64,000 bases of DNA, from positions 768,887 to 832,886 of the forward strand of contig JADKIY010000001.1 of assembly GCA_016722575.1 (NCBI GenBank), read 5' to 3'. The notes under the pieces are model-generated. The model worked only from the letters and a program-made list of their open reading frames with translations, ran no database searches and was not told where the DNA came from. Position numbers and translations under genes: made by a program. Shown here in pieces: positions 2,930-39,934 of this stretch (within the stretch, counting starts at the first letter, position 1; every line of letters begins with the position of its first letter). This DNA is from Elusimicrobiota bacterium (GTDB lineage Bacteria; Elusimicrobiota; Elusimicrobia; FEN-1173).

Positions 2930-2958
2930 GGAGAATTCCCTTGAATGAAGCCGGAACA

Positions 2959-4861: not shown

Positions 4862-4932
4862 GGAGTTCTCCTTTTTTCCGTCGGTGAATTGTACCTTTTT
4901 TGTCGGCGGCGGTCCAGAACCCGGGAAAACCC

Positions 4933-4960
4933 TTGACACGGATCGTCGGGCGTGTATAAT
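4933..4960 (+). promoter_or_regulatory. Consensus sigma70-type promoter upstream of rho (TTGACA-N16-TATAAT)
   Basis: TTGACA at 4933-4938 and a perfect TATAAT at 4955-4960. The ~150-nt leader runs to the rho ATG at 5114 (RBS AAGGAG). Confidence 0.45.
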
Positions 4961-5113
4961 GAGTGCGGAAAAACCCACCGAGATGCTCTTCCCAATTCCG
5001 TTGTCCATCCCGAGGTGAACATCCCCAACGGCGCGCACGGCGCGACCGCGGGTTTTTCCGCTGTTTCATCTTAAAACACAGTCGCCCCATCCCCCAACTC
5101 TAAGGAGCGCTTC

Positions 5114-14451: not shown

Positions 14452-15870
14452 GTGCCACCCATGACCCCGGCGTCTCTTCCGGAATCGCAGCCTCTGATGT
14501 TGGCGTCCTTGATGGGGCGGGGCCGTTGGGCCCCGACCGTCGTCCTTTTTTTGGGCCCGGTGGGGTTGCCCTTGTTCGGCGGGGCCATCGTCTGGGCCAT
14601 GGTACGCGGCCCCTGGCCCGCCGCCGACGTCTTTCCCCTGTTTGTCGGTCTCGAACTCCTCTTGTATTTGGGGGCCGGACTCGGCTGGAGCTTCGGCGCC
14701 GCGCTCTCCGCCACGGGTCTCGGCCTTCTCGGCTTTTTCTTTTCGACGGTGCCCCAGGCCCGCCTGCTCTTCGCCGCCCACATCGCCCTTCTTTGGACCG
14801 TTTTTGCCGTGTTAAGCCTGTTCGACCGCCGGCGTCAAACCGCGTGGAATCGATTTCACGAGGAGTGGGACGGGCTCGAGATGGATTTGACCCACACCCA
14901 GACGGACGTGGACAGCACCCGCGCCTTGATCGAAGACAGCCGCGCCCGCATCGTGGCCTTCGACCGGCTCCAGCTTTTCACCGACGATCTCATCGGTCCC
15001 TACCACCGGGAAGAACTTCTCGGCAAGGCCCAGACCGGCTTGGGCGCCATGTTCCCCCGGGCCCGGGTGTCCCTCCACATGTTTCCCAAGCCCGACGCTC
15101 CCAGTCCCGAGGACGAATTGGGCATGAAAATGCTCCAGTGGGGCCAACCGCGCCTTCTGGCCTCCCGCGCCGGCTCCGTGCCCACCTGGGACCAGGGCCT
15201 GGTCATCGTGCTGCCGGTCAAGGGAAGGGAAAATTTCCTGGGGTGGATCCTTTTGGAATCCAAAAACCCCGACGCGCCCTTTGAAATTCACGACTTGCGT
15301 TTGGCGTCCATCGCCTCGGACTTGATCGCCCTGGCCCTCGGCAACACGGAACGGTTCTCCCAGACCGAAGCCCTGGCGATTTCCGACGAGCTCACGGGCG
15401 TCTACACCCGGGGCTATTTCAACGAACGGCTTCAAGAGGAATTCGCCAAAGCCCGGCACAAAGGCCGGCCCTTCACCCTGGTTCTCCTGGACATCGACCA
15501 TTTCAAAAAAGTCAACGACCTCCACGGCCACCACATCGGCGACGAAGTGCTTCGGTGGTTGGCGCGCCTCGTGACGGGCCAGGCCCGGGAAACGGACTTC
15601 GTCGCGCGCTACGGCGGCGAGGAATTTGTCGTCCTCATGCCCAACACCCGGGGCGCCGACGCCTTTCGGTTCACCCAGCGGTTGTGCAAGACCATCGCCA
15701 CGACGCCTTTCCGGTGGGGCACCAAGAAAATCAAAATCACCTTGTCCGCCGGGGTCGCCTGCCTGAAAGACGAGGTGACGGCGGAGGAAGATTTGATCCG
15801 GCGGTCGGACGAAGCCCTCTACGCCGCGAAAAACAGCGGCCGCAACCGGGTGTGCAATTATGACGCCTGA
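14452..15870 (+). CDS. Membrane-anchored diguanylate cyclase (GGDEF domain, GGEEF active site)
   Basis: N-terminal TM helices, then a central sensory region. GGDEF core DELTGVYTRGYF...LLDIDHFKKVND..GH..GD...RYGGEEFVV. Confidence 0.85.
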   Translation: MPPMTPASLPESQPLMLASLMGRGRWAPTVVLFLGPVGLPLFGGAIVWAMVRGPWPAADVFPLFVGLELLLYLGAGLGWSFGAALSATGLGLLGFFFSTVPQARLLFAAHIALLWTVFAVLSLFDRRRQTAWNRFHEEWDGLEMDLTHTQTDVDSTRALIEDSRARIVAFDRLQLFTDDLIGPYHREELLGKAQTGLGAMFPRARVSLHMFPKPDAPSPEDELGMKMLQWGQPRLLASRAGSVPTWDQGLVIVLPVKGRENFLGWILLESKNPDAPFEIHDLRLASIASDLIALALGNTERFSQTEALAISDELTGVYTRGYFNERLQEEFAKARHKGRPFTLVLLDIDHFKKVNDLHGHHIGDEVLRWLARLVTGQARETDFVARYGGEEFVVLMPNTRGADAFRFTQRLCKTIATTPFRWGTKKIKITLSAGVACLKDEVTAEEDLIRRSDEALYAAKNSGRNRVCNYDA

Positions 15871-17203
15871 ACTCGCCCACGCGCTTTTGTTCTGGGGGGC
15901 CGCGCCCGTGCTGTGGGCGTCCATCCATTGGCGGGACGCCCGGGGCTTCCTGATCGCCGCGGTTTTCGGCGTTTTCGCCCTCTTTCACGCCTGGGGCGAC
16001 GCGGGGGCCCTCTGGGATTTGCTATTCCATTGGGGCACGTACGGCTTGGCGGCCCTCGTGCCCTATTATTTTCGGCGGTACCAGAACGGACTGGAGCGGG
16101 AATTCGCCCGCCGGAAGTCCCATTTGTCCGAACAACGCTCCAAAAGCGCCCACCGCCACGACGCCATCGTCCGGGAGAAAAACGAACTGCAGGACAATCT
16201 GGAACGCCTGCAAAACCGTTTCGCCCTGGTGCAGGTCATGGCGACGAAGCTCGAAGCGGGCGAAATTCTTCAGACCTTGGGCCACATGTGGAAAAAGCGC
16301 ACCGGCGTCAAAGGGTGCCTGATTCTGCGCCGCCAGTTGAACGGCAATTGGACCACGGCCTTCACCGACGGCATTTTTAACGCCCAGGATTGGATTCGTT
16401 TTATGACCGCGCACCCCTCCATCGCCCGTTCGCGGCGCATTCGGCGTTACGCCGCCAACGGCCGCCAGCTGTCGTTTCCCGGCCAACCCTTCGGGTCCAC
16501 GTGCCTGCTCATCCCTTTCACCTGGGACAAGGACATCCTGGCCATGGGCGTGGTCGAAGTGGAGCCCCAGCGGATGGAGGACAGCTTGGAAGGATTCAAC
16601 ATCGAACGCAAACTCGTTTCCATCGGCCTGCGGCGGGCCGATCTCTACGATTTGATGACGGAGCGCAGCCGCTACGACGCGTTGACGGGGGCGTTCCTCC
16701 GGCGAAGTCTGACCGAACGGTTGGAAGACGCCGTCCGAAAGTCCCATCGCTACAACACCCCGCTGTTTTTCGCCTTGATGGACATCGATCACTTCAAGAC
16801 GCTGAACGACCGTTGGGGCCACGTGATCGGCGATCGCGTTCTGGTCCACTTGGCCCAGATGGTCCGCCGATTGGCCCATCCCGGCGTGACCCTGGGCCGC
16901 TTCGGCGGCGACGAGTTCGCCCTCATCATGGAAATGGATTCCCAGCCGGAGGTGTTCGCCTGGTTTGAACGCCTGCGCCAGCTGACGGCGGAATCGCCGC
17001 TCCGGGACCGGGAAGCCTTGATCCGCTTCACGATCTCCGCCGGAGTGAGCGCCTACCTTCCCGGCCGGCCGGCGCTGTCCGATTTGATGGCCCAGTCCGA
17101 CCACGCCTTGTATCAGGCCAAGCGGGCCGGGCGGGACCGGGTGGTGGCCTGGCGGGCGCCCGGATCGGCCTCCTCGTCGACGGCGGCCCCGGTGAAGAGC
17201 TGA
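15860..17203 (+). CDS. Second membrane-anchored diguanylate cyclase (GGDEF domain, GGDEF active site)
   Basis: Overlaps the previous stop by 11 nt. N-terminal TM helices, then YDALTGAFLRRSL...MDIDHFKTLND..GH..GD...RFGGDEFAL. Confidence 0.85.
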   Translation: MTPELAHALLFWGAAPVLWASIHWRDARGFLIAAVFGVFALFHAWGDAGALWDLLFHWGTYGLAALVPYYFRRYQNGLEREFARRKSHLSEQRSKSAHRHDAIVREKNELQDNLERLQNRFALVQVMATKLEAGEILQTLGHMWKKRTGVKGCLILRRQLNGNWTTAFTDGIFNAQDWIRFMTAHPSIARSRRIRRYAANGRQLSFPGQPFGSTCLLIPFTWDKDILAMGVVEVEPQRMEDSLEGFNIERKLVSIGLRRADLYDLMTERSRYDALTGAFLRRSLTERLEDAVRKSHRYNTPLFFALMDIDHFKTLNDRWGHVIGDRVLVHLAQMVRRLAHPGVTLGRFGGDEFALIMEMDSQPEVFAWFERLRQLTAESPLRDREALIRFTISAGVSAYLPGRPALSDLMAQSDHALYQAKRAGRDRVVAWRAPGSASSSTAAPVKS

Positions 17204-22998: not shown

Positions 22999-23140
22999 TC
23001 GTTGGCCGACCGCTAAAAAACCCTATCGTACGCCATTCCGGAATGATCGTGTCCGGAATCCATGTTTTTCTCCGACGGAAGAGAACCCCTGGATTCCGGC
23101 CAGAGGCATGCCGGAATGACGGGCCCTTGGGTTTGTCAGA

Positions 23141-23170
23141 GAAAAAAAATCCCCGCGGAGGGCCGCGGGG
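23141..23170 (-). terminator. Rho-independent terminator downstream of the giant-locus last ORF
   Basis: Minus strand reads CCCCGCGGccctCCGCGGGG followed by TTTTTTTTT. Lies 40 nt past the stop at 23210. Confidence 0.6.
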
Positions 23171-23209
23171 ATCGGGGTGAATCGGTTTACCGTTTGATCG
23201 GCGGTGGAA

Positions 23210-25795
23210 TTACGCCTGGGTCATGATCTTGAGCATCGTCGCGATGTCGTTGGCGATGGCTTCGGAAAGCTTTTGCAGGCCGATGATCAGGAAACCCGCG
23301 GCTTTGGTGACGCTCTCGGCGTTCCGGGCGATGATCCGGGTTCCTTTCATCATTCCCGCTTTCTGGTTTTCCGGCCGGTTGATCCAGGCCACCACTTCCG
23401 ACATGACCACGCGGCCCTCGGCGTCCACCAGCCCCGGCACGCGGCCGGGCGTCAGCACGTGGACCACCGCTTCTTTTTGCACGGCATTGGCGAAGACATC
23501 GTTCAAGGGGTTGGCGCCTTCGGCCGCGACGATTAAATTGGTTCCCGGTCGGACCGCTTCGGCCAGCCCCGTGAGGAAAATCCGCATGTCCTTCTGTTCC
23601 CGGGCGCTCCAACCCATGTAACCAACCAAATTGACGTGGAGGGTGGTGGCCGAATCCTGGGCGGCCCGGGCCCCCGCGGCCAGCAGAGCGCCTTCGGCCA
23701 ATTGTTCCTGACGGGCGGGTTCGTTGATCAGCCGCCGGGCGGCGGCGCGGTCGTTGGAAAGGAGCTGGACGAGGCTTTCGAAACCGCTCAGCCGGGTGGC
23801 GTCGTCCACCGACGTGTATTCCGAACGAAGGTCGTTGAAGTTTCGCGCGGTCCAATAATCGCCGCTTCCGACCGGGGTCGGAATCGTGAAATTGAAGGGT
23901 TCCGCTTTGGAACCCAAAAGCGTTTCCATGAGGGCCAATCGCGCCCAGGCGTTAAAGTCTTCCTCGCCCGTTCCGGGGGACCGGCGGCCGTTGGGCCCCT
24001 TGGGCGTTTCGACGCCCGCGGGCAGACCGAGGGTCGGCGATTTGGGGGTGGCCGGGATCCCCAGGTCCACGGGGAAGGACCGGTTCCGGGCGTCCACAAA
24101 CGTGAGGGTGACCCGTCCGTCCGTCACGCCGACCGTGTAGGTGGTCAACCCGTAGACCGCTTGAACCCGGAAAACCCGTTGGCCGATCAAGGGAACCAGC
24201 CGATTGATTTCGGCTTTGACGGCGCTGTGGTTGGGGCTTAAGAGCGCGGGCGTCGGGGATTCGCGAAGAAGGAAGGACACCACGGCCGGAACGACGTCGT
24301 ACCGCAGCCAGAAGGCGTTTCGCGGAGACAAATTCGTCGCGCCCAGAACGCCCAGGGCCTGGGGATTGTAAAACTCCAGGGCGGCCGGCAATCCGAACCG
24401 TTCGCGAACGCCCGGCCAGTCTTTGGCGGCGGCGTCGATGTAGGGAAGCAGGGAGGAGGCGATCCGGGAATCCTCCGCCAAGGTGTCGGCTTCGGCCGTT
24501 TGGCGGTTGTCCCGGGCGATGTGCCCCGCCTCGTGGCCCCAGGTGTTCAAAAGGCCCACGGCCGTGTTGTTGCGGTCCAAATAAACGACCCGCTTGGCGT
24601 CGGCGTCCGATTCGCCCTTCTTTTTTAAATCGTTGAACAATCCCAGGGCCGGCAAATTGGAGGTGATCACCACCGCGCCGACCTTGGAGGTGTCCAGTTT
24701 CCAGGTGTGGGTCACCTCCAAAAGCCAGGCCAAAATCTTGGCGTCGTCGGCCGTGTTCGCTCCCTCCAAATTAATTTTTTGAAGTTGAGCCGAGGCCTGC
24801 AGAAGCGGGTTGGACTTTGCCATCCATTGCTCGGCCCGCTTGATCGACGCCTCGCTGGGCGCCAACTGGGACATGTCCAGGCGGGCCACTTGGGCCCGTT
24901 CCAGCGTGGCCAGGGGCAGGTTCGGGGTTTCCACGTTGGCTTGGGAAAGGGCCAGGGGGACGCTCAAAAGGTTGAGGGACAGGAGGGCGGCGGTGGCCAG
25001 GCCTTTGACGAAGCCGGTGCGATCGGCCATCCATCGCGCGACGGAATCGCGTACGTTGAGAAGCGCGTGGGCCGCGACCCCGGCGGCCGCCGCCGCGGCG
25101 GTCATCCAATGGGACACGCCGCCGGTCATAAACAGGTCCAGCATCATGAGAGGGACGAAGGTAGTGGACGCGATGGCCGTGGCCCCCACGGCGCGCCCAA
25201 AGGTTCCCGGGGCGGGCTCAAACCGTTTCGTCGCCGGGTTGTAATTCAGAATGCCGCTCACGTAGTGGGCGCCGAAAAGGGCTACTCCCAACGTGGCGTC
25301 GTTCAGCAGATCGGAGCCTTCCGCGTAGCCGGTGAAGGGAAGAAGGAAGTTCACCGCCAGGAGGAGCACCGATTCCAGGGCGCCGAAAAGGGCGAAGGAA
25401 AGGTTTCGGGAATTCCCGAGGGACGGGAACCGGTCCAAAAGGGCGTTGGCCACCGGCGCCCACCAGCCGACGGCGCCGCGGGTCGGGCCGTGGGCGGGGG
25501 CCGCGGCGGCGGGTTTCGTGGCCGAGAAACCAAGGCCGGTTAGCACTTCCGTTTGAATAAACTGGGTCAATTTCGGCCAAAGGGTGTCCGGTTCTTCGTC
25601 GGGCATTTCGATAACGACGAGCTTGTCCTCAAATCCAAGCTTTTTGGCCTGGGCCTTGAGCACCGCGAGGGCCGTGGCGGCGGGACGACCGTCCGGCCGA
25701 AGGGCCTTGGTGTCGACGAAGGCGATCAGGAAGTCGGGTTTGCGGGCGCGCAGGGTGTTCTCGTCGAATTTCGTCGTCGCGGGCGGGATATACAC
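23210..25795 (-). CDS. Giant-locus ORF3: polytopic membrane protein with an M48-like HEAGH zinc-metalloprotease motif
   Basis: 861 aa from GTG 25795. TM-rich region at aa ~130-285. NNTAVGLLNTWGHEAGHIARDN maps to 24521-24556 and resembles the M48 active site. The frame is open upstream to 25964 with no start codon, so it may be fused to ORF2 by a frameshift. Confidence 0.6.
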   Translation of the reverse strand: MYIPPATTKFDENTLRARKPDFLIAFVDTKALRPDGRPAATALAVLKAQAKKLGFEDKLVVIEMPDEEPDTLWPKLTQFIQTEVLTGLGFSATKPAAAAPAHGPTRGAVGWWAPVANALLDRFPSLGNSRNLSFALFGALESVLLLAVNFLLPFTGYAEGSDLLNDATLGVALFGAHYVSGILNYNPATKRFEPAPGTFGRAVGATAIASTTFVPLMMLDLFMTGGVSHWMTAAAAAAGVAAHALLNVRDSVARWMADRTGFVKGLATAALLSLNLLSVPLALSQANVETPNLPLATLERAQVARLDMSQLAPSEASIKRAEQWMAKSNPLLQASAQLQKINLEGANTADDAKILAWLLEVTHTWKLDTSKVGAVVITSNLPALGLFNDLKKKGESDADAKRVVYLDRNNTAVGLLNTWGHEAGHIARDNRQTAEADTLAEDSRIASSLLPYIDAAAKDWPGVRERFGLPAALEFYNPQALGVLGATNLSPRNAFWLRYDVVPAVVSFLLRESPTPALLSPNHSAVKAEINRLVPLIGQRVFRVQAVYGLTTYTVGVTDGRVTLTFVDARNRSFPVDLGIPATPKSPTLGLPAGVETPKGPNGRRSPGTGEEDFNAWARLALMETLLGSKAEPFNFTIPTPVGSGDYWTARNFNDLRSEYTSVDDATRLSGFESLVQLLSNDRAAARRLINEPARQEQLAEGALLAAGARAAQDSATTLHVNLVGYMGWSAREQKDMRIFLTGLAEAVRPGTNLIVAAEGANPLNDVFANAVQKEAVVHVLTPGRVPGLVDAEGRVVMSEVVAWINRPENQKAGMMKGTRIIARNAESVTKAAGFLIIGLQKLSEAIANDIATMLKIMTQA

Positions 25796-28700
25796 TTCCG
25801 GGGGTACGGCCGATACGTTGGCTTTCAGGGCTTCGGCGCGGTAATGCCGCGTCCGCCCAAAACCGTTGGCTCCCAGGCCGGCGGAGAAGAACCGAATCGT
25901 CTTCAGGGCTTCGGGGTCCGGGGCCCAGCAGGACTTTGTTTGCGTCCTCCGGGAAGTCCAGTTTCATCCCGCTGCGCATGGTCAGGGTCGTGACGGTCCC
26001 TTCGGGGGACGTCACTTCCAACCGGGGCAGAATGGCGTTGATGGAGGATTGGAACTGATCCCGCTCGGCGGCCGGGACCAGGGAACTGTTGAATTTGAAG
26101 AGCGCCTTGCGCGCCAGAATTTCGGCGATGGCGCTTCGGCTTTCGTTGTTGGAGCAAATGAACATGCCCGTGACGTGATCGTCCTCGGTCAGCCGCCCGC
26201 CGCGGCGCAATTTTTCGACGCTCGCCCGGAGTTTCGCTCCCGCCCGGGCCAGGACCGCTTTTCCTTCCGCGTCGATGTATTTGGGGGCCGCCGGACCGGC
26301 GGTGGGCGCGTGTCCGGCGGTCAAGGCCGTCCAACCGAAGCGGGCGGCGGCCCGGTTGTGGACGGCGTGGAGGGCCACGCTAGCCAGCGCGCCCAGGGGG
26401 GCCAGGAACAGCCCGCCGAAAGGGTCCATGAAGGCCAGGAGCAAAGGCGCGTGAATGGCCATGCCCCGCAGGGCCAAGTTCCACCGGGTTTGCCGGGTGG
26501 CGGGGGCGGGTTCCAATTCCCATCGGCCCAAACGGTCAACCCCCGACTCCGCGGGCTTATAGCGATAGACCGACCGGTGGGAAAAGCCGAAGGCCACGTT
26601 AACGAGGGCGAAGAGGCCGGTGGCCGCGAAGAAGGAATGATCGATGGAGACGCCGAAGAAGGACCCCAGGGCGCTCATCAAGCCCACGGAGGCGTAGAAG
26701 AAGACGCCCGTAGCGAGGGATTCCACCAAGGGGGCCTTTTCGTTGACAATGCGGTTGAGGTCGGCCGGATTATTCTTGTCGAGGTTGAAGACCCAGGCGA
26801 TCAGGGGCACCAGCCCCGGAATCGTCGCGGCAAGCGGTTTCTGTTCAAAATCAGCGGCTCTGACCAAATTGATGGCGACGCCATGGTAGCCGCCCCAATC
26901 CGCCGGCGGCGTCGATAGGAGAATTTTGTGGACGGTTGGCCGGCTACGCACAAATCGCCGAATGATCTCCGGGGTGGCCAGCGGTGTGGGATCGGTTGCA
27001 CCTGTCACAGCGGCGATCAACTTAAGGGCCTTGCGCTGGACGTCGGGGTGGTTCCTTAGGTATTCAAGGTATTCAGAGACAGCTTGTTCCCCGGGCGATA
27101 CGGGGGCGACGGAATGAGCGAAAGTTGTCACAAGCTGAAGGGGCGAGTCCTCGGGCCGCTGAGCGATGCGAGCCATAATCACTTTTAAATCATCGTTGTT
27201 CATCGGGCGGCCGGTGATTTCCTGGAAACGAGCCCGCCAGGCCTGAATATCTTGAGGCGTGAAAACTCTTACGTTGTTGGTAACAGGCTTCGGTTCCGTC
27301 GCGCGCAGGCGCCCCTCCAATTCGGTGCGCAGGGGCTCCGAGGGGAGGCTCTTGTCGATCGCCGGTCCCATGAGGTCTCTGATGTCGTCGGCGCTCAGCG
27401 TGGCTTTGATTTCAGAATGTTTGTATCGCTCTCTTTCGTCCGGGACGATTTCGCCGTTGGGCAATGCGACCTCCCGGCCTTCAAAGGCCCCATACCGGTA
27501 GCCGAGGCGTCCATGTGAGCGATCGCTAAAACGTTTGTCGCCCCCTGTCCCGAGCTCATGAAACTCAAGCCCCGGGACCTCTCCTATTCCCGCATCGGCC
27601 AGTCTCTTTTCCAGCAACATCCCCAGGAAGATGGCCGAAATCTCGTAAGGTTCAACCGACTTCCCTTTCAATTCGTTCAAACGGAATTTCTCATAGATTT
27701 GAGCTGCAATGGATTGATGCAGGTAGATGGTGATGCCTTTGGCGGCTTGAGTCTCATAATCCTTCAGAAACTCCAGCATTTCAAGGCCGTCGGCGACCTT
27801 GTGCGGTATGTTAAGGTCCCAAAGTACCGGCAGTATTGCGTCCAACACACGATCGGCGTCATCCGGCGTCAGGCTGATATGGAATTTCCAGCCCTGTTTG
27901 TCGCGCGGCAGTTCTCCCATTCGAACATCTGCATATCGCCATCCCCGCATCGGAACATATTTATCCTGCGGGGTTTTGAGGCGGATGGGGTCAGTCCCGT
28001 CCTCGCCCTTCCCGGGGCCCTTTCGGGCGGGCGCGTGCCCGGCGGTCAAGGCCGTCCAGCCGAAGCGGGCCGCGGCCCGGTTGTGGACGGCGTGGAGGGC
28101 CACGCTGGCCAGCGCGCCCAGGGGGGCCAGGAACAGCCCGCCGAAGGGATCAACGAAGGCCAGGAGCAAAGGCGCGTGAATGGCCATGCCCCGCAGGGCC
28201 AAGTTCCACCGGGTTTGCCGGGTGGCGGGGGCGGGTTCCAATTCCCATCGGCCCAAACGGTCAACCCCCGGCTCGGCGGGCTTGTAGCGGTAGAAGGAGC
28301 GGTGGGAAAAGCCGAAGGCCACGTTAACGAGGGCGAAGAGGCCGGTGGCCGCGAAGAAGGAATGATCGATGGAGACGCCGAAGAAGGACCCCAGGGCGCT
28401 CAAAATCCCGACGCCGGCGTAGAAGGCGAGGCCGGTGGCGACGGATTCGACCAGGGGGGCCTTCTCGTTGACAATGCGGTTGAGGTCGGCCGGATTGTTC
28501 CTGTCGAGGCCATAGACTCTGGCGATGAGGGGCACCAGCCCCGGAATCGTTGCGGCCGGCGGTGTCGCGGAACTTTCATTTAAGAAGGCATCCAATTGAC
28601 GTTTAACGTTTTTGTTTAACTGCTGCCAGTAGGAAAGACTTTGTTCCCACTCGTTGTAAACCTTGTCGTTGGCGAGGACGTCGGCCACGGCGTCCCCCGT

Positions 28701-28805
28701 GGCTTCAATGTATTTTTGAACGGAAACAAGGAAATCGCGACCGGCTTCGGATTGAATGGCGGAAAGGATTTCCCGATCAACGGTGCGGTCGTCGATCATT
28801 CCCAA
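25629..28805 (-). CDS. Giant-locus ORF2: membrane protein with two near-identical copies of a ~170-aa His-rich four-TM module flanking a ~420-aa soluble region; CX5R(S) motif near the C-terminus
   Basis: 1058 aa from TTG 28805 or ATG 28799. Modules at aa ~85-257 and ~660-832 are ~95% identical. CSNNESRS (C-x5-R-S) maps to ~26150. The last ~60 aa are Arg/Pro-rich and look like an out-of-frame tail. Confidence 0.6.
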   Translation of the reverse strand: MGMIDDRTVDREILSAIQSEAGRDFLVSVQKYIEATGDAVADVLANDKVYNEWEQSLSYWQQLNKNVKRQLDAFLNESSATPPAATIPGLVPLIARVYGLDRNNPADLNRIVNEKAPLVESVATGLAFYAGVGILSALGSFFGVSIDHSFFAATGLFALVNVAFGFSHRSFYRYKPAEPGVDRLGRWELEPAPATRQTRWNLALRGMAIHAPLLLAFVDPFGGLFLAPLGALASVALHAVHNRAAARFGWTALTAGHAPARKGPGKGEDGTDPIRLKTPQDKYVPMRGWRYADVRMGELPRDKQGWKFHISLTPDDADRVLDAILPVLWDLNIPHKVADGLEMLEFLKDYETQAAKGITIYLHQSIAAQIYEKFRLNELKGKSVEPYEISAIFLGMLLEKRLADAGIGEVPGLEFHELGTGGDKRFSDRSHGRLGYRYGAFEGREVALPNGEIVPDERERYKHSEIKATLSADDIRDLMGPAIDKSLPSEPLRTELEGRLRATEPKPVTNNVRVFTPQDIQAWRARFQEITGRPMNNDDLKVIMARIAQRPEDSPLQLVTTFAHSVAPVSPGEQAVSEYLEYLRNHPDVQRKALKLIAAVTGATDPTPLATPEIIRRFVRSRPTVHKILLSTPPADWGGYHGVAINLVRAADFEQKPLAATIPGLVPLIAWVFNLDKNNPADLNRIVNEKAPLVESLATGVFFYASVGLMSALGSFFGVSIDHSFFAATGLFALVNVAFGFSHRSVYRYKPAESGVDRLGRWELEPAPATRQTRWNLALRGMAIHAPLLLAFMDPFGGLFLAPLGALASVALHAVHNRAAARFGWTALTAGHAPTAGPAAPKYIDAEGKAVLARAGAKLRASVEKLRRGGRLTEDDHVTGMFICSNNESRSAIAEILARKALFKFNSSLVPAAERDQFQSSINAILPRLEVTSPEGTVTTLTMRSGMKLDFPEDANKVLLGPGPRSPEDDSVLLRRPGSQRFWADAALPRRSPESQRIGRTPGSVYPARDDEIRREHPARPQTRLPDRLRRHQGPSAGRSSRRHGPRGAQGPGQKAWI
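26309..26828. repeat. ~520-bp direct repeat, copy 2 (encodes a four-TM His-rich module)
   Basis: Near-identical to 28034-28553; the six-frame side ORFs 26321-26539 and 28046-28264 translate almost identically. Copies are separated by 1725 bp. Confidence 0.8.
28034..28553. repeat. ~520-bp direct repeat, copy 1 (encodes a four-TM His-rich module)
   Basis: See 26309-26828. Confidence 0.8.
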
Positions 28806-31800
28806 GTTGCGAGGGGCGTTCTTTCAGGCCGGGGCCCTCCCAGTGGCGCGCAATATCAAACAAGGTTTTAACGGTTTGCCGGGCCAGGCCGGGATCCATC
28901 CGGCCATGGGCTTTGATCTCGTGGAGCGTTTGCCCCTCGACAAATTCTTCGACGTACCATTGGATCTGCTCTTTGCCGTCGGGCGTTTCAATGAAATCGG
29001 CAAGGCCGAAGCGGGGCGTTCCGTGGCCTCCGATGGATTTCAGGGCATCAAGCTCTCCACGTGCGGGTCTTGAAGGCACAGGTTTTCTTTGGGAATTACG
29101 GACATCTTTTCCTTCCGCGACATAGGCGATGTCGAATTGGTCGGTCAAGTCGGTGGACGAAAGGGGAACCTCCAGGATCCGGCGAATCAGCATGGCGGCC
29201 GTCCCCTTGTCGACTTTCGTCAGAATTTCGCCGGCGGTGGTGGATAGGTCCGCCAGGCGCCGAGCCGTATCGGCCGGTTTTTCTCCGGGTTGCGTGGCGT
29301 AACGTCCGGCGATGGCGAACCGTCTAAAAGCACCGGCGGAGGACGAGGCCGGCCCTCCCGCCGTCATCGCCCGCCAGCCGAAATGGGAGGCCAGTTCGTT
29401 GTGGACGATGTGCAGGACGACGGAGGTGGCGGCGCCCAGGATCGTCACGAGGGGGCCTAGAAGGGGGAAGAGGTTTGTCCAGAGCAGCGGGGAGTGAATG
29501 GCCATTCCGCGCACGGCCAAGCTGAGGCGGGTGCCCCAGGAGGCAAATTTCGGTGTGCCGTCGGGGTTCGACTCGACTTCCCATTGGCCGTCCCGGTAGG
29601 TGTACACCCGGGCGTGAAGGGCGCCGAAGGCGAGGTTCGCCAGGGCGAAGAGCGAGTATTGGTTGAAAATCGTCGGATTCAGGGAAACCGGGACTCCGAG
29701 GAAACCGGAGACGATGACGTCCAGGTTGGACATCAGCACCATGGCCCCGAAATAGAAAAGACCGAAAAGGGCGGATTCGACGAAGGGGGCTTTTTCCGTC
29801 ACGATCTTGTTCAGGTCTTCCGGGCTGTTGGGGTTCAGCCGGTAGAGGCGGGCGATCAGCGGGACGAGGCCGGGGATGGTCGCGGGCGGGCCGCGATCCC
29901 GGTGGACGTTGGGGGCCGCGCCGGTTTTTAGAATGGGGATTTCGCCCCGGCCGAACCGGACGGCTTGATTGTAGAGGGTCAAGGATTGGTAGGCCAACGA
30001 AAGCAGTTTGGTCGGATTGGTTTTGACCCCGAACATGGGGAAATGCGAATTCGCGTTGTGAACGGCGGCGTATTGGAACGGCCAATAAAGGTCCAAGAAG
30101 GCCTTTTCCCGGGTGTCAACGGCGTAAATATCCGAAAGTTCGGGTTGGGACAAGGACACGTGGTTCGACCGTCCCAGGAGAACGTCGACCTTGAACGGGG
30201 TCGATTCACGCCCCCGTTCCCTGGTGGCGAAATATTCAATGACGGATTTGACGAACAGCGCGGATTTCCCGGACCCGTAAGTGTCCACCACGACAAAGGA
30301 CCGAGTCATCGGCAAGCCGCTGGAGCGGAATTGGCGATAAATTTGATTCGCGTAGTCGGCGAAAAGCGCGTCGCCTTCGATGAGAGCCGCTGTTTTTTGC
30401 TTGAATTTTTCCTCGATCCCCTCCCGAACGGCCGCCGATTTAATGCCCAATTGATCGAAGGGGAATAGACCTTCGGCGACGATTTCCCTAAAACTCTCGT
30501 CCATGATGTTCTTGATGGATTTGATGATTTGCGACAATTCTTTGTCGTCGTTGCGGCGATTGGGGCCCACCGGCGTGAATATGCCCGGATGGTAAACCAC
30601 GGCGGCGGCCGACGTTTGGTCGTTCAGTTGGTCCGTGTAGCGACGGAATTCGTTAATGGACAAGGCGTCGCGGGCCAGGAAGATCGGCACCTGCCCCGTT
30701 TCCTGAAGGCGCGCCACGACGTACGGCGCGAAGGCGACATGACTGTCGACGGCTTCCTGGTCCCGGGTGACGACGTCCGGGGCCAGCAATTGCCGCAATT
30801 CTTCCCGGGCGTGCAGGAAGGAGTCCCGGTTGACCTGGTTCGACCCGCCCATGAGCATCAGCCAGCCGGAGAGAATTTGATTGATTTCGTTGTCGGTGAA
30901 GACCCGGGGGCGTCCTTCGGCGTCCTTGGGAAACTGGTCCGCGTCCAAGGCCCAAGGCAAAGCCGCCAAGTCTTTCAACTGGAAAAGGCGCTCCTTTCCA
31001 AAAAACCGCTGGTGGTTGGCGAACAAACTCTGGGCCACGGGATGGGGGGTGAGCACAATGATCTTGGTGGATTGGAAAAAGCTTTCAATGCTCCCGGCCT
31101 TCCACCAATTCCGCATTTCGGGTTGGCGAATCAAGGACGCGTCGTGGATGGGGATGTTCCCGGGGGCCCATTGTTCGCCCGGCGTTCCCCGGCCCCGCAC
31201 TTGAATGAGTTCCGTGCCCTCAAAGGCGCGGCCCAGACGTTTGACGACGTTGCGGATGGCGATGTCTTGTAGGTGGCGGGCCGGCGTGTCGCCCTGCTTG
31301 GTGTAGTCCCCGCCGCTGGCCACGTTGGACGGAGCGGTGTCGTAGACGTCGCGCGCCATTTTAACCAGGCGGTCCAGTTCGTCGGGATGGGACTTGAAAT
31401 ATTGATAGTAGCCTTCTTCGTAAAATTCGTAGGCCCTTGATTCGTCCACGATTTGGTCGTTAATGACGTGCTTGATGGACCAGCCGCTGGGGCCGAACCA
31501 TTCGTCCAGCCGCGCCCGAATCGCCGGGGCGTTGTAGCCGAAATATCCGGGGCGAAAGAAGTCCTCCTTGGCGTATTCTTGTAAGAAATCCGCCAAGGAC
31601 ATTTTGACCAGGCGCTTGGCGTTGCTGGGGGGGCCTTGGTCCCCGTTGGCCGCGGTGGCGGCCGTCCAGCCGAACCGGGCGGCCAATTGGTTGTGGACGA
31701 CATGGAAAGCGACGCTGGTCAGAGCCCCCAGGGGGGCCAGGAAGAGGCCGCCGAGGGGGTCCATGAAGGCCAACAAGAGGGGGGTGTGAATGGCCGCGCC

Positions 31801-34800
31801 CCGGAGAGCCAACGCCCAACGATCGCGGAGGGACGCGGGGGCCGGTTCGGCCTCCCAGCGGCCCGTTCGGGTGACGCCCGGGAGGGGCGGCTTAAAGCGA
31901 TAAACCGACCGGTGGGAAAAGCCGAAGGCCAGGTTGACCAGGGCGAAGAGGCCCGTGGCGGCAAAGAAGGCGTGGTCGATGTGAAAGCCCACCGCGGAAC
32001 CCAGGGCGCTCAGGAGTCCCACGGCGGCGTAGAAGAAGACCCCCGTAACGACGGTTTCGACGAGGGGGGCTTTTTCGTTGATAATGCGGTTCAAATCCGC
32101 CGGGTTGGCGGGATTGAGTCCGTAAAGCCGGCCAATCAGGGGAACCAACCCCGAAATCGTCGCCGCCGGAGGCCCCCGGGGCGCCCCGGTGGACGTGGGG
32201 GCCAAGGTCCCGTTGGCGGACTGTTCGTCCAAGAGGACGACGTCGTTGCCAACGATGGATAGAGAGAATTGGTTGCGGGAAATGCCGCTGGTCGGGCCGA
32301 CGCCCAGGTCCTCCCGGCCGAATTGAAGGGTTGCGCCGGTCCGTCGATGGCCGTTCGGGAGAAGCAGAGACAATCCCCCTTCGGGGGTCGACTCCAGCAC
32401 TAGGTGGACGCCATTGACGACGAGGGGCACGGGCAGATGTTTTCGGGGGATGTTGACGGCCCCCGCGTTTTGGGACGGGCCGCCCAGGAGTGCCGTTGCC
32501 CGGACGTTCCTCCAGGCGTCAACGAGGGCGGTCAGATACTCGGCGGAGAAGGCTTCGATTCGCCCCGGGGTTTGATTGCGTTGGAGGGAAGAGACGGTCT
32601 GCTCGAGGGCATACACCTCATCGGACAACGGTTCGTTGGCCAATGGCCGGCCGAGCGCCGCCAAGTGGTCGTTCAAACGAGTGTCCAAGTGAAGCCGGAC
32701 GGTCCGCATTTGGGCCAGGTCGTCTCCCAGCTCCAAGTTCCCGGAATCTCCCCGGCGCAGGGTCCCGGCGGCCGACACACGCTGCCCCGCTTCGTCCCGA
32801 ATATCCGAAAGGGTGTAGCGGGCCGATCTCCCGCCCTCCGAGGCTTCGATGTCCACGGCCACGGCAAAGGCGGCGGCGTTTTGGATGTCGCTTAGGACGA
32901 CCGCCCCGTCTTGGGGGACGACGCGAATTTTGTCGCCTTTAATGTAAACGTCCAGGGGGATCCGAAGGGCGCGGCCCTGGGCCAAGATTCCCAAATCCCC
33001 CCGGACCGAGGCCAGAAGGGTCGATTCCAATCGTTCCCGGCCGGAATTTCCCTCTTCAGCGGGGCTCACGTCCACCGTGGTGTTGTTGGGTGAAAAGTTT
33101 TCCACCGTGGCTTCGCTGCCCGACCAGGCCAGGGCGGCGTGTTTGCGGGAAACTTCCACGCCGCTCAACCGGAGCGTGCGTCCCTCGGCGGCGGTTTGGC
33201 GGCCCAGAGTCAAGGATTCCCCGGGTTGAAGGACTTCCCGGCCTTCGGGGCCGGTGGCGATCAATCGGTTTCCCTCGAGCGAGAGGGAAACGCGGTTTCC
33301 GCTCAACACCAGGACCGAGGGGAAAGTGCCCAGCCGGCGGGGCCCCGACGTTGGCGTGAGAATCGTGTTCCCCGTGATGGCGGGGACGACCGGCGCGACC
33401 GGGGTCTCGACGACGGGTTCCGCCGGCCGGGTGATCCGCAGGGCGTTGTTCAGGAAGAAGTCGGCCGTTCCCTGCCGTTCGTTGGTGACGCCGAAATCGA
33501 AGTAGGCTTCCGGGATGACGTTCCAGGTTTTTTTAACGGTCTCATTGTTGAATTCCGCCGCGCCGTCCCCCGGCTGAAAACGGGCGCGTCCCGCGGAGGC
33601 GGGGGCCAAAATCACGCCGGGGGTGAGGCGGGCGAGCTGTTCCCAGGCGGCCTTCCAAACGGGACTCAAATCGTAGCCCGAGGCGTTGTAGTCGCCGAAA
33701 ACGAGAACGCCCTGATCGGTCATCACCAGCACCACGTTGGCGATCATGGCCCCGGTGGCTTCGTCGTAGGCCATGGCGAAGGCGGAGTTGGATTCCAGGG
33801 CGTGGGCCACGGGCATTTCCTGGTGGCCGCCCCCGAAGGGATTGAAGCACCCCGGAACCCGGTGCCCGGCGGCCACTTCGTCCAGGAGGCTTTTCTGGAT
33901 TTTCACCGAGACCCGGGCCCGGGCGTCGTCTTTTAGTTTCTGCGTGGCCAAGAGGGACCGGAGGGCGATGAGGATTTCGTTGAAGTGGAGTTGAATTTGG
34001 AGGAACCGTTCCTCGGGGTTTTCCACGCCGTCCCGGGAGAGGCGGTCGATGGCCTCGTCCCGTTGGCCGAGGATCCGCTCGTTCACGAATTGTTCGGCGG
34101 CGGCGTAGGTGTCCAGGGCGTCGGCCGTTTGCGCGGCTTCGGCCGCCTTGACCAGTCCCAGGGATCGGGCGATCTGGACCAACTGTTCGGTTTGCCTCTG
34201 AACCTGGACAATCCGTTCCTGGGCCGACAGCGGGGCCACGTCCTGGGCCGGGACGACGATTCCCCGGTCCCACAACGCGGGGGAATAGCCCGCCGCCAGA
34301 AGCGCGGCCTTGGCCTCGCCGTTGCCGGGGATTTGGGCGAGGTTGTGCGCCGCGGCGGCGGCGTTCGCCGCCTCGGCCGTCCCACCGTTGCGGAGCGTCT
34401 CCAGCCAGGTCGTGACGGCCGACTTCAGCCGGTCCGCCAACCCCGCCGTTTCCCCGGTCGGGGCGCGCTCCGGCCGCAACGACGTGGTCAAGGACGTGGC
34501 CACGATCAGTTGCGTCAATTGCCGCTGGTCCAGCTTCTCCAAAATGGGAGCGTTTTCCTCGCCGAAAACCTCCAGAACCGCCTGCCGCTCGGCGGCGGCG
34601 ACGACCGCCTCGACCGTCCTAGCCAGATTTTTCGGTCGGAGCGACCCGCCGGCGAAAGCGGCCGCCAAGGCGCGCATGGCTTCCAGGGAAGGTTCGAGTT
34701 TTTCCCGGGAATTGGCTTCCGCGTGAAGTTTAAGAAGCAGACTCCAACGGTAAAAGGTTTCGATCAAACGGTAATAGTCGATGGCCGGGTCGGTGCGTCG

Positions 34801-37800
34801 AAGGAATTCGAAAAACGGATCCCTTTCGCTCCAATAGGGAAGGCCCGCCAGGGCCTCGTCCAACAGTCCCACGCTGGGAACGCGGTTTTTCTCCGCCAGG
34901 AACATCAATAAATCCAGGGAAGCCGCGGGGCCGATGTGGCGGGAAAGGGCCCCGTCCACGTGATTGATGAGATGACCCTCTTCCGGCACGCTCCATCGCT
35001 CGGCGATTCCCCGAAGCCGCTCGGCCAGGGCCGCCATGCGCTCGGGGCGGGCCGTTGAGCTTCCGGTGTTCCGTGCCGTCGTGGCCAGGGCCCGGGCGGC
35101 AAAACCCATGAAGGATCCCTCGCTGGAGCGGATTTTTCTCGGATCGACTCGGACGCCGAGGGTTCCCAGCAAAGCGATTTCCTCCGGGGACAGGGCGCCA
35201 AGGTGTTTCAGGTCGTCGCTGGGAATGTTCAGGGCCCGCAAGGTTTTGGTCCGCTCGAAGGCCTGGACGAAGGCCGGGGCCTGGGCCAGGGGGCCTTTGA
35301 GCGGGCGATCCCGGGTGTCCTCCCAGGGGCTGAACGCCGATTCCAGGGCTCTTTCCACTTCGCTCGACAAATTGAAGCGCGCGCTCTGACCGGCCACGGC
35401 CAAATCCGCCAACAAGGGTTTTTGAAGATCCGGGTAGACCAACCCGAGCAGCAACAGGCCCACCGCGGCCTTTTCCTCCGTTTGGTATCGGGAGGGTTTA
35501 TCCCCTTCAAAGAGCAGTTCGGAAAGACCGGTAAAAAATTCCAGAGGCGCCGTTTCACTTTCGCGGCCCACGGGGGATCGGGCCAGCAATTCCAGGAAGT
35601 GGACCTTGGTGAGGCCGAAAATCATGCCCTCGTTTTCCCGTACAAATTGCGATTTGAGAACCCGCTCGATGGCCGCCGCGCTTTCCCCGGGGTCGGGGGA
35701 GGACAGCAGTCGGTTGCCGAGGGTGTTTTGAATCGTTTGTGATTTTGTCTGATCGAAAACCTCCCCCAGGAGGAAGGAGATTTTCCAGAGAGTCTGGGCG
35801 TCCGGTCCCTCGGTCAACAATTTGGGGGAGTCCGCCACGCGCTGGAAATAGAGTTGACGGAATTCCCGGTGGAGGCGTTGTAGGTCGGCGGGGGCGGACA
35901 GAAGAGCCTGGGTGGCGGCGCCGAAATCGGCCCCCTCTTTAACCAGAACGTGTCCCGCGAGGGCGATCATGGCCCGCTCGGACCGGTCGTAGGCGTCCAT
36001 GCGGTCGAAAAATTCACCGAGTCGAACCAGCGCCTCCGGATTGGATATCGCGTGGTGGACGATCCTCTCGGCCATGACCTCCCCGGGGACGGGCACGTCT
36101 TGGGTGGAAGTTCCCGCGCCTTGGCGGGCCATGTTCAGAAGCCGGTTCAAGGCCAGGGCCAGTTCGGGCTTTTCGTTCAGCCGTTGGTCGGGGGCCAGAA
36201 GGCGATCGAGTCCGGCGAGGGCCGTGGGCGAGGTGAATTTTCCGTACCTTCGGAGATTGGACAGGCCGGCCAGGTGGTCTTCCGTTGATCCCGTCAAAAA
36301 GGCGCCACCGCCGCGGCGTTGGGCCCAGTTGACCCCCGCGTGGCCCAAAACGCCTACCGCAAAGCCCCCGACGACGGGACCGAGAACGGAAGACGAGACC
36401 CCCGCCAGTTCTTGCAAACCTTGAAGGGGCGCGGCCCAGAAATGGGATGTTCCGAGGGAAAGAAGCGTGTTTCCCAATTCCCGAACGAGGAGGGGAAGGT
36501 TTTGAATGATTTCGGTTGGGCCGAAGGCGGCAAAGGAGGGGACAAAGGCGCCTGTCAAAAAGACCGTGACGGCCAAGGACGCGACTCCGAAAGCCGTGAA
36601 CAGGGAAAAGATGCCAAGTCGATCGAGGGGGGTGGCTTCGCGTTGTTGAAGAGCTCCGTCTTTCCCGTAGTAGTAGACCTGTTTGTGCGTTGCCAACGTG
36701 ATTTTGGCCGCGACGACCAAGGCGGCGGTCAGGGACCAAGCGGGAGAACCCGCCAGGAGAAGAATGGGGTAAACGTACAGGAGAAACCGGGCGTTCTCGC
36801 CGAAGGGGGCGGACCATAAAACCGTGCGGGCGGGATCGGTGCGCATCGATCCGGCGTAGTTCCCGGAGAAAAGCGGCCGACGCGCCAAGTCGCTCAAAGC
36901 GGAGCGGGCGCGGACCACGACCGATTCGGTCAGAGCGCCGGGGAGGGCCGCCGCACGGGCGAATAAGCCCGACATTCGGGAGGCCAAACCGCCGACCAAA
37001 GCGCCGAAGGCGGCCACGACCGATCCCGTTCTCCGAACCATGTCCACGGCGTGGCCGTTGCCCAGATCGACGTGGCGGTCGGCGGCCCCGTGGACGTTGT
37101 CGCAGGGCTCCAGGGCCTCGGCGGCCGATACGGATACCGCGCGGACGCCGTTTTGCAGGACTTCCTGGGCGCCGTGAATAAACCGGGGGGTTTCGCCCGT
37201 CGCGTCGGCCAGGGCGATGGGGTGGGAAAGATAAATGCGGTCGCCGGCGACCAATTTTTCCAGGGGAACGGGGTCGTGGGCCAGGATGTCCAGGTAATCG
37301 CTCTCGCCGGGGACGTCCGTGATTTTAGGCGTGACCACGACGTAGGAAATTTGTTTTTGCCGGAGAAGGCCGGTCAATCCCTCGGTGTGGAAGCCGCCGG
37401 CCACGAGCACGCCGGTGGTGGTGCCTTTTTCGGCCATTTTAGCCAGGAGGTTGGCCACCAGGGCGTCGTTTCGACGGACGGCGTAGGAGCAGAAATCCTC
37501 AAAGGGCTTGAGCGTTTCAACCGTCAGGGACGGGAGCCGGGCCACCGTCGGATCCAGGGCCGCCAGGCGGTCCCGAAGGGCCAGAATCTCGGGCCGGCGC
37601 TTTTCGTAGGCCACCCAGTCGGGCATGGCCATTTCGTGCCGGAGCATTTTTTCCAACAGGGCCAGGTCCCGGGCGATGTTCATTAAGGCGGTTTCGGCGG
37701 GGGTTTTGGCCAGGGAATTTTGGGCGGCGATTTCCAACTGGTCCAGTTCGGCCACGAGCTCGTTGCGGCTGATCTTCTCCGCCAGCAGGACGTAGGTGAT

Positions 37801-39099: not shown

Positions 39100-39213
39100 G
39101 GATGAGCTGCGGCGCGGGGCTCTCTCCCCTCGGCGCGGCTTAATAGAAGAATAGGGGAAGAAGGGCGAAAAAGCCCTTAAGGGATGGTAAATTTATTGTA
39201 ACGGGTTTTTGGG

Positions 39214-39558
39214 TTAAACGCCGAAGGATTCGCCGCAGGAGCAGGTGGCGGTGGCGTTGGGGTTCTTGAAGAGAAATCGGCGGGAAAACATCTTGTCTTC
39301 GTAGTCCAGGGTGGTGCCGGCCAGGTAAAGCAGACTTTTTTTGTCCACATAAACCGTGACGCCGTGGGCGTCCACCCGGTGGTCGGTTTGGGGGGCGGGG
39401 CCCACCAGGGGTTCCAGGGAGTAACTGAACCCCGAGCAGCCGCCCGCCGTGACTTTCACCCGCAGGGCCTCGGCGCCTTGGCCTTTTTCGGCCAAAAGCT
39501 TTTTGGCGCGCTGGGCGGCGCGTTCGGTTACGTCAAAGAGGGCTTGGGTTTCGATCAC
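39214..39558 (-). CDS. HesB/IscA-family Fe-S cluster insertion protein
   Basis: ...VTAGGCSGFSY...C-terminal TCSCGESFGV (Cys-x-Cys motif). GTG start. Confidence 0.85.
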   Translation of the reverse strand: MIETQALFDVTERAAQRAKKLLAEKGQGAEALRVKVTAGGCSGFSYSLEPLVGPAPQTDHRVDAHGVTVYVDKKSLLYLAGTTLDYEDKMFSRRFLFKNPNATATCSCGESFGV

Positions 39559-39882
39559 TTAGGCGTCGAAGGATTTGCCGCAGCCGCAGCTTTTTTTGGC
39601 GTTGGGGTTGGAGATGGCGAAGCCGCCGCCGGAGAAATCCTCTTTGTAGTCGATGACGGCGCCCGCCAAAAGCGCGGCGCTCGGCTCGTCGATCACCAGG
39701 TTCAGTCCGCTCAAATCCAGGGCGGTGTCCCCGTCTTTTTTGTCGTCGAAGGTGAACCCGTATTGGTAGCTGGAGCAGCCGCCTTTTTCGACGTAGACGC
39801 GCAGGGCTTTGCCGGCGAGTCCCTTGTCGTTGGCGTAAAATTCCTTGACCTTTTCCACCGCGTTCGGGGTCATTGTGAGCAT
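39559..39882 (-). CDS. HesB/IscA-family Fe-S cluster insertion protein (tandem paralog)
   Basis: ...VEKGGCSSYQY...C-terminal SCGCGKSFDA. Directly abuts the downstream paralog. Confidence 0.85.
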   Translation of the reverse strand: MLTMTPNAVEKVKEFYANDKGLAGKALRVYVEKGGCSSYQYGFTFDDKKDGDTALDLSGLNLVIDEPSAALLAGAVIDYKEDFSGGGFAISNPNAKKSCGCGKSFDA

Positions 39883-39934
39883 GGTTCCTCCGGGATTCTT
39901 GATTTCGATCTAATTATGCCAAAAAAGTCATATA

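Follow-up and report, generated by a model that had tools for sequence, protein, structure and literature searches.

Three very long open reading frames (ORFs) lie head to tail on the minus strand of a 64,000-nucleotide (nt) stretch of DNA from an Elusimicrobiota bacterium (lineage FEN-1173; assembly GCA_016722575.1, contig JADKIY010000001.1, positions 768,887 to 832,886), which is referred to here as the window. Comparison with related loci leaves us in little doubt that these frames, ORF1, ORF2 and ORF3 (Table 1), are pieces of one interrupted giant gene, whose fused length would be about 5,295 codons, or about 5,360 with the kinase-like segments that it appears to have lost. The fuller statement, that this gene was broken twice by lesions that are both real and recent, we put at an even chance. 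A first-pass annotation made from the sequence had proposed a single frame of about 5,300 amino acids (aa) and had pointed out a +1 frame step between ORF1 and ORF2; frame analysis confirmed that step and found that a +1 step leads from the upstream to the downstream frame at both junctions.

In the NCBI annotation, ORF1 is IPP68_03545 (MBL0349437.1), with 3375 aa from TTG 38904, and ORF2 is IPP68_03540 (MBL0349436.1), with 1056 aa from ATG 28799. This ATG, rather than TTG 28805, is most likely the start of ORF2 as it stands. Two candidate products of ORF3 had no exact match in the protein collection searched.

The reading frame in related genomes

The closest comparison was provided by L003 (Joint Genome Institute metagenome contig Ga0268298_10001846), a syntenic orthologue with 86-89% nt identity to the window. 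The other contigs used were L004, a second contig from the same metagenome, of which 12,457 nt were examined; L001, from another Elusimicrobiota metagenome-assembled genome (MAG; GCA_035334285.1), which encodes the partial protein P0001 (1362 aa); and L002, a GTDB genome contig (DAOQNO010000380.1). A second assembly of the same species was searched for and none was found. The word-indexed protein search proved unreliable for this family, as it missed P0004, which is identical to ORF2, and returned nothing for either the P0006 domain described below or the intact L003 domain (∼85% identical to P0002 and P0004), so that its empty results do not amount to an absence of homologues.

Three blocks of L003 align with the window: 8-1175 corresponds to the end of ORF1, 1324-2110 to the start of ORF2, and 1580-5212 to the end of ORF2 together with ORF3. 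Over the tail of the giant gene and the genes downstream of it (window 26831-15670) the two are colinear at 86-88% nt identity. L003 holds one open frame from position 2 to a stop at 5210-5212, the counterpart of the window stop at 23210, while its other two frames contain 18 and 54 stops. The frame proposed for the window thus runs unbroken in L003 through the equivalents of both junctions to a common stop, and L004, whose kinase-like cassette is of the L001 type, has one frame open across all 12,457 nt. Because the frames of L003 and L004 are open over these lengths, an uninterrupted giant ORF is the normal state of the gene family. L001 is 87% identical to window 26831-24216 at the nt level, and P0001, 91% identical to the window protein, spans junction 2 unbroken. 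The comparison of orthologous junctions that the first-pass annotation had recommended therefore finds L003 in frame at both sites, and L001 and L002 in frame at junction 2.

The two junctions

At the first junction, ORF1 ends ...HWEGPGLKERPSQLGNDRRPHR at the TGA 28779-28777. A TGA at 28825-28823 closes the ORF2 frame, which after that stop reads KNAPRNLGMIDDRTVDREIL... and has its ATG at 28799-28797. Any join of the two frames must therefore fall within about 28822-28780, a segment that contains a CCCC run (28816-28813) and a ttGGG run. When the distance is measured between anchors common to L003 and the window (CACTGGGAGGGC and TCGCAA), 149 nt in the former correspond to 21 nt in the latter. 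The L003 protein reads ...TLFDIAGHWEGRIPRDSTRRNFVLKKGTDRVVMVDVGGGFYRVLGPESTDEDRAKFLFRTLRNLGMIDDRTVDREIL... across this point. The peptide lost from the window is RIPRDSTRRNFVLKKGTDRVVMVDVGGGFYRVLGPESTDEDRAKFLFRT, which holds a catalytic-loop D-x4-N and a VD(x)G motif, and the final ∼15 residues of ORF1 (PGLKERPSQLGNDRRPHR) are new sequence made by the lesion. ATG 28799 is an internal Met codon (RNLGMIDD) in the orthologues L002 and L003. Upstream of it the ORF2 frame is open in L002 (EDRAKFLFRTLRNLGMIDD), with the same sequence as in L003, and the other two frames are closed. A Shine-Dalgarno motif was looked for at the proper distance from ATG 28799 and none was found.

The loss may be broken down into a 102-nt deletion between GGGCC direct repeats (L003 positions 1171 and 1273) and a 33-nt deletion between GCAC repeats (L003 1284 and 1317), accompanied by 5 + 2 extra nt, which leaves 12-13 of the 14 remaining orthologous bases matching. 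This solution is not unique; under it the large losses would possibly be in frame, and the ∼7 extra nt would break the frame. The first-pass suggestion that one base in the GGG or CCCC run would join ORF1 to ORF2 holds to the extent that removing a single base does reopen the frame, but the site is one of a net 128-nt loss relative to L003.

Both sides of junction 1 appear to belong to one kinase-like domain. An exhaustive HMMER search with the fused segment between the flanking modules returned two distant relatives, P0006 and P0007. These match the C-terminus of ORF1 (WY.EEF(I/V)EG.T) and continue as ...PRD.HL.NFV...AVMVDIG..., that is, with kinase-type catalytic-loop and DFG-like motifs. 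The ORF1 C-terminus matched the domain profile with E = 1.2e-9. The match of the ORF2 N-terminus to the profile was colinear and weak (P = 9e-4), with a pairwise E of 0.004 against residues 491-559 of P0006. Colinear matches of the two ORFs to one domain meant that some 45-50 residues were expected to be missing exactly at the junction, which L003 confirmed. The segment that was lost contains every invariant D, N and VD of the domain alignment. L003, P0006, P0007, P0001 and P0003 all have the catalytic-loop D-x4-N and the DFG-like Asp without variation, and the window copy has both deleted. The N-lobe has a further net in-frame loss of 63 nt relative to L003, at 29062-29109, which removes ...KVVYRVKFHASNKAVSKPLELLFAFKKP..., the beta-strands carrying the lysine of an AFK motif that is likely to be the ATP-binding Lys. 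The 76 codons remaining between this loss and the one at junction 1 have an omega (ratio of non-synonymous to synonymous rates) of 0.06.

The resemblance to the eukaryotic-like Ser/Thr kinase fold lies in the relatives, in which the EEF(I/V)EG.T hinge, (P)RD-x4-N and VMVD(I/V)G occur in canonical order. The window copy differs, having neither catalytic loop nor DFG-like motif and an incomplete N-lobe. In a PDB search with the domain profile 27 of the 28 matches were Ser/Thr kinases, each of them weak (E at or above about 0.03; best E = 0.028). Pfam matched no kinase family to the fused junction-1 segment, and gave P0003 just a weak AceK_kinase match (E = 0.006). Two candidates were discarded along the way. 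The string PRNLGM in the ORF2 frame had been considered as the PRD catalytic motif, but L002 and L003 read ...FRTLRNLGM... here, downstream of the true catalytic loop. P0001 was set aside as a junction-1 orthologue, its kinase cassette being unrelated at the DNA level and faintly similar as protein.

At the second junction, ORF2 reads ...MKLDFPEDANKVLLG and then enters a 97-residue tail whose Arg and Pro content is 35%, compared with 14% elsewhere in ORF2. The ORF3 frame stays open as far upstream as 25963 and reads ...APDPEALKTIRFFSAGLGANGF...; it contains no ATG, GTG or TTG between that point and GTG 25795. The deposited sequence here is CTGCTGGGCCCCGG. The frame-breaking gap of 2 nt lies directly 5' of GGGCCCC (25926-25920), in a variable linker. 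P0001, encoded by L001, reads ...MKLDFPEGTQYKEVLPEAPDPEALKTIRFF... through the junction (...MKLDFPEGTQYKEVLPEAPDPEALKTIRFFSAGLG... over a longer stretch), and L002 and L003 are identical to it there. A single C in the gaCCCCgaa run (25916-25913) had been put forward as the base that would fuse ORF2 to ORF3. The orthologue alignment places the break elsewhere, between 25927 and 25926, and the run encodes a conserved D-P-E that is already in the ORF3 frame.

Substitutions relative to L003, counted by the Nei-Gojobori method, distinguish the two overlapping frames. Read in the ORF3 frame, the 43 codons before GTG 25795 (25926-25796) carry 9 synonymous and 0 non-synonymous changes, and the stretch 25795-25629 carries 16 and 2. 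Read in the frame of the ORF2 tail, 25926-25632 carries 0 synonymous and 25 non-synonymous changes. An open stretch of 56 codons before a start is not rare by chance in DNA of 62% guanine plus cytosine; the stretch upstream of GTG 25795 is regarded as non-random because it is conserved, as the first of these counts attests. The Arg/Pro tail of ORF2 is thus nonsense, and for as long as the two lineages have been diverging it is the ORF3 frame that has been coding, which bears out the earlier observations that the tail looked out of frame and that the ORF3 frame extended upstream of its start codons. Possible starts for the third fragment are GTG 25795, GTG 25663 and ATG 25606, the last of these 23 nt past the ORF2 stop.

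Against L003, omega is 0.06-0.17 both before and after each junction, which shows that the orthologous frame was in the past under strong purifying selection, and pN in ORF3 is 0.07, similar to that of the upstream segments. From this value, any neutral period in the window lineage would have taken up no more than a few per cent of the branch.

Table 1. Positions of the ORFs, lesions, domain remnants, modules and neighbouring genes in the window.
Feature	Position	Strand	Remarks
ORF1 (fragment 1)	28777-39099	minus	3440 aa
ORF2	25629-28805	minus	1058 aa as listed from TTG 28805
ORF3	23210-25795	minus	861 aa from GTG
Fragment 2 (coding part of ORF2)	25927-28799	minus	module B, RamC_N/LanL-like lyase cassette, module C, linker
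Fragment 3	23210-25926	minus	ORF3 frame, conserved from APDPEALKTIRFF onward; stop common to L003
Junction-1 lesion	28813-28833	minus	21 nt CCCGGCCTGAAAGAACGCCCC in place of 149 nt in L003; net -128 nt, frame broken
Overlap of ORF1 end and ORF2 ATG	28777-28799	minus	ATG 20 nt before ORF1 stop
Junction-2 lesion	25920-25941	minus	6-nt in-frame gap (∼25941) and frame-breaking 2-nt gap (25927/25926) vs L001, L002, L003
Out-of-frame ORF2 tail	25629-25926	minus	97 aa, RSPEDDSVLLRRPG...
N-terminal remnant of kinase-like domain	28834-29331	minus	ORF1 end, hinge motif WYVEEFVEGQT
C-terminal remnant of kinase-like domain	28563-28796	minus	ORF2 start (ILSAIQSEAGRDFLVSV...); colinear with P0006 491-559 and L003
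Transmembrane module A	29332-29889	minus	four hydrophobic segments
Further transmembrane module copy	31615-32172	minus	repeated unit
Transmembrane module B	28011-28562	minus	in fragment 2
Transmembrane module C	26280-26837	minus	in fragment 2
Two tandem small iron-sulphur cluster biosynthesis genes (HesB/IscA-type, PF01521)	39214-39909	minus	directly upstream of giant gene, same strand
Two adjacent GGDEF diguanylate-cyclase genes	14452-17203	plus	gene order conserved in L003

Real lesions or consensus errors

If the lesions are real, the following course of events may be proposed. The catalytic core of the kinase-like cassette would have been lost at junction 1, where 149 nt were reduced to 21, possibly through two in-frame microhomology deletions (102 and 33 nt) together with 7 extra nt, and ORF1 would then terminate 15-17 codons later at TGA 28777. 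At junction 2, about 2.9 kb downstream, the variable linker would have become 8 nt shorter (6 + 2), leading into the Arg/Pro nonsense tail. The gene would now be at an early stage of decay or fission, and the best that could be expected is re-initiation of fragment 2 at Met 28799, once an internal codon, and of fragment 3 at GTG 25795 or ATG 25606. In several respects the locus resembles the genes disrupted by frameshift or deletion, known as young pseudogenes or split genes, of bacterial genomes and MAGs, giant surface-protein genes among them: its adjacent ORFs on one strand correspond to successive parts of a single orthologue, the frame-breaking indels can be localised, a nonsense tail follows the shift, and the downstream fragment is without a start of its own. 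It differs from them in that a gene with two lesions has no detectable relaxation of selection, and in that one lesion is domain-sized and precisely removes a catalytic core.

The principal alternative is that the organism itself has an undamaged gene, which encodes an in-frame, kinase-dead variant of about 5,295 aa, and that at each junction the assembly has one base too many (or two too few). We regard this as a serious contender, at somewhat below an even chance. Polishing could have failed to remove indel errors of the long reads, or the consensus could have been drawn from mixed strains at sites with indel polymorphism. Several observations weigh against real lesions and for such an artefact. 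Taking one base out of 28822-28780 (from CCCC or GGG, for instance) and one out of the GGGCCCC at 25926-25920 is enough to yield a continuous ORF of 5,295 aa. Lengths divisible by three predominate among the indels between the window and L003 (63, 6 and 3 nt, and arguably the 102 and 33 nt of junction 1), as if the gene were intact in vivo. Lineages differ by indels at both lesion sites, and it is at such sites that a mixed-strain consensus is likeliest to have the wrong length. The contig is 851 kb long (850,996 bp), which suggests a long-read assembly, where residual indels are to be expected.

The absence of any relaxed selection downstream of junction 1 is a further point of this kind. Omega is 0.03-0.17 downstream of both lesions, and the 43 codons without a non-synonymous change would be untranslated if ORF3 starts at GTG 25795. 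The lesions, if real, must for this reason be very young. Moreover, L001, L002 and L003 are ∼98% identical to each other over their shared part and form one sister lineage, so that these intact comparators amount to a single evolutionary data point. Finally, the assembled sequence alone does not separate a real mutation from a consensus error.

Other evidence speaks against the artefact. A scan of 20 further ORFs in the window showed none that looks split, and 16 of them have Pfam matches, mostly over the whole model. The flanking genes, compared with L003 over 7.4 kb, show only gaps that are intergenic or multiples of three, with no frame-breaking gap in coding regions. At a uniform error rate it would be unlikely for one gene to collect two errors in 2.9 kb while other sequence had none. 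The runs at the lesions are short (G3 and C4) and neither lesion lies in a homopolymer of at least 5, and the error required is an insertion, whereas homopolymer errors in Nanopore reads are typically deletions in longer runs. In favour of the artefact, on the other hand, the locus-tag and accession series of the MAG suggest that it probably originates in a Nanopore activated-sludge study. The pipeline described in PMC8012365 for activated-sludge MAGs combined Nanopore assembly and polishing (CANU, Racon and medaka) with one round of Illumina-Racon. Residual indels of the sort expected from such a pipeline would resemble the present case in that the broken ORFs are repaired by one base and the contig is long enough for long reads. 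They would differ in that the lesions of the window lie outside long homopolymers, require an insertion and have clean neighbours, and in that a net loss of 128 nt is not a type of base-calling error. The idea of single-base homopolymer indels, with which the window had first been read, accordingly survives in part: one base removed per site restores the ORF, but the deficits relative to the orthologues are 2 nt (with 6 nearby) at one junction and a net 128 nt at the other. Real, recent lesions remain the reading that we prefer.

The first-pass annotation had also allowed for genuine overlaps with translational coupling or for programmed frameshifts, and both are contradicted by the in-frame orthologues and the unconserved ORF2 tail. 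Three separate genes with short overlaps and coupled translation, as GenBank presents ORF1 and ORF2, are very improbable. The ORF2 ATG does stand close before the ORF1 stop and NCBI annotates the two as separate proteins. A Shine-Dalgarno motif was present upstream of only some window genes, and since many genes of this genome lack one, its absence at ORF2 is not decisive. However, the orthologues have neither a stop nor a start at the boundaries, the ORF2 ATG being an internal Met in L002 and L003. The end of ORF1 and the start of ORF2 fall inside one kinase-like domain, the ORF3 boundary falls inside a conserved linker with no start codon for the first 43-56 conserved codons, and the last 97 residues of ORF2 are unconserved nonsense.

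Least probable of all, and barely credible on the evidence, is programmed +1 ribosomal frameshifting at both junctions to give a full-length protein from the deposited sequence: both sites need the same +1 step and have CCC-C contexts nearby, which are prone to +1 slippage by tRNA-Pro, as in the prfB/RF2-type and tRNA-Pro CCC-N systems, but, in contrast to those, the orthologues do not share the shift sites (L003 keeps its frame at both junctions, and L001 and L002 keep theirs at junction 2), there is neither a stop nor a known hungry-codon motif like that of prfB to act as a stimulator, the shift at junction 2 must precede GCC-CCG (APDPE), where the P-site CUG cannot re-pair in the +1 frame, and an Rfam scan of 23000-39300 returned no element.

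Modules, cassettes and what the split gene means

Self-comparison of the protein revealed a module of ∼185 aa with four hydrophobic segments, present in four copies (residues 2310-2495 and 3071-3256 of ORF1; 82-265 and 657-842 of ORF2) and also found in P0001 and P0003. Its motif positions include conserved His and Asn (...NEKAPLVES...FGFSH...IHAPLL...LHAVHN..FGW). No Pfam family matched the module even at E ≤ 10. A CPBP/Abi-like identity, which had been considered from a resemblance of motifs, was dropped, as it likewise had no Pfam support at that threshold. Modules B and C are 95% identical over 300 nt of DNA and are exactly 1725 nt apart, in frame.

Of the segments between the modules, Pfam and NCBIfam recognised an FHA domain in ORF1 and, in ORF2, a RamC_N or LanL/LanKC N-terminal (lyase-type) stretch (Pfam match at 27714-27941). 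ORF3 had no match in either. A megasynthase resembling a nonribosomal peptide synthetase or polyketide synthase was rejected, the FHA domain and the RamC_N/LanL lyase stretch being all that these databases yield. An HEAGH (HExxH) motif was observed at 24521-24535 in fragment 3 (...LLNTWGHEAGHIARDN...) and is kept in P0001 (HEAGHITRDN). This region could be a zinc-metalloprotease-like cassette, for which neither Pfam nor NCBIfam gave support. Taken as a whole, the giant gene would be specific to Elusimicrobia and would encode a secreted or membrane protein in which four-helix modules separate FHA, kinase-like, LanL/RamC-type lyase-like and HExxH cassettes.

The content of the cassettes differs between close relatives. 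The unit formed by module B and the lyase cassette (26838-28010) was found in the window only; L002 and L003 run from the ORF2 N-terminal region through one module into the tail. This may be either a real gain or loss of a cassette by recombination between modules, or a collapse of the repeat in short-read contigs. L001 (357-1528) and L004 (10530-11701) have the same modules on either side of another, full-length kinase-like cassette of ∼390 aa (...WIMDVNPDNFMF...VFVDLG...), which cannot be aligned at the DNA level with the cassette of the window and L003. Module A of L003 is just 88% identical to module A of L004, and for this reason the two contigs are taken to come either from different strains or from paralogous giant genes within the metagenome.

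A bolder reading, which we consider rather unlikely, is that this is an undescribed family of giant Elusimicrobia membrane proteins in which the near-identical modules serve as sites of in-frame recombination for the gain, swap and loss of cassettes, and that the lesions would reflect erosion of the kinase cassette and not death of the gene. The B-lyase-C arrangement seen only in the window, the unrelated kinase cassette of L001 and L004 between the same modules, and the losses of 63, 102 and 33 nt are compatible with such turnover. By analogy only, modular giant effectors or toxins whose cassettes can be exchanged, such as polymorphic toxins and MARTX proteins, are alike in that conserved repeated modules flank unrelated enzymatic cassettes that vary between close relatives. 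They are unlike it in that the repeats of the giant gene are ∼185-aa membrane modules without a Pfam match, and no membership in those groups is claimed.

At the 5' end of ORF1 (ATG 39099), a perfect-to-98% tandem duplication of 57 nt was observed at 38939-39052, which encodes LRPLRGAPGTVGAPKERRL twice. The NCBI start of ORF1, TTG 38904, lies downstream of it and is followed by a signal-peptide-like stretch (...FFFCNVLGVYAQEQ). The true start of the giant gene is therefore uncertain.

For annotation, the practical consequence is that MBL0349437.1, MBL0349436.1 and any call made for ORF3 should be treated as fragments of one gene, that the last 97 residues of ORF2 are nonsense, and that the first ∼45-105 residues of the third fragment are missed. 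The two junction sites also offer precise and cheap checks for residual indels in a long-contig MAG. Should the deposited sequence be real, ORF1 would end in a truncated kinase N-lobe followed by about 15 novel residues. Fragment 2 would be made only by initiation at ATG 28799, without a proper Shine-Dalgarno sequence, and fragment 3 only from GTG 25795, GTG 25663 or ATG 25606, with 43-105 conserved residues lost. The biology is in this sense ordinary, being that of a recently broken or mis-assembled giant gene. Its mild interest lies in the family itself, which is giant, lineage-restricted and scarcely annotated, and in which membrane modules are conserved and enzymatic cassettes differ between close relatives.

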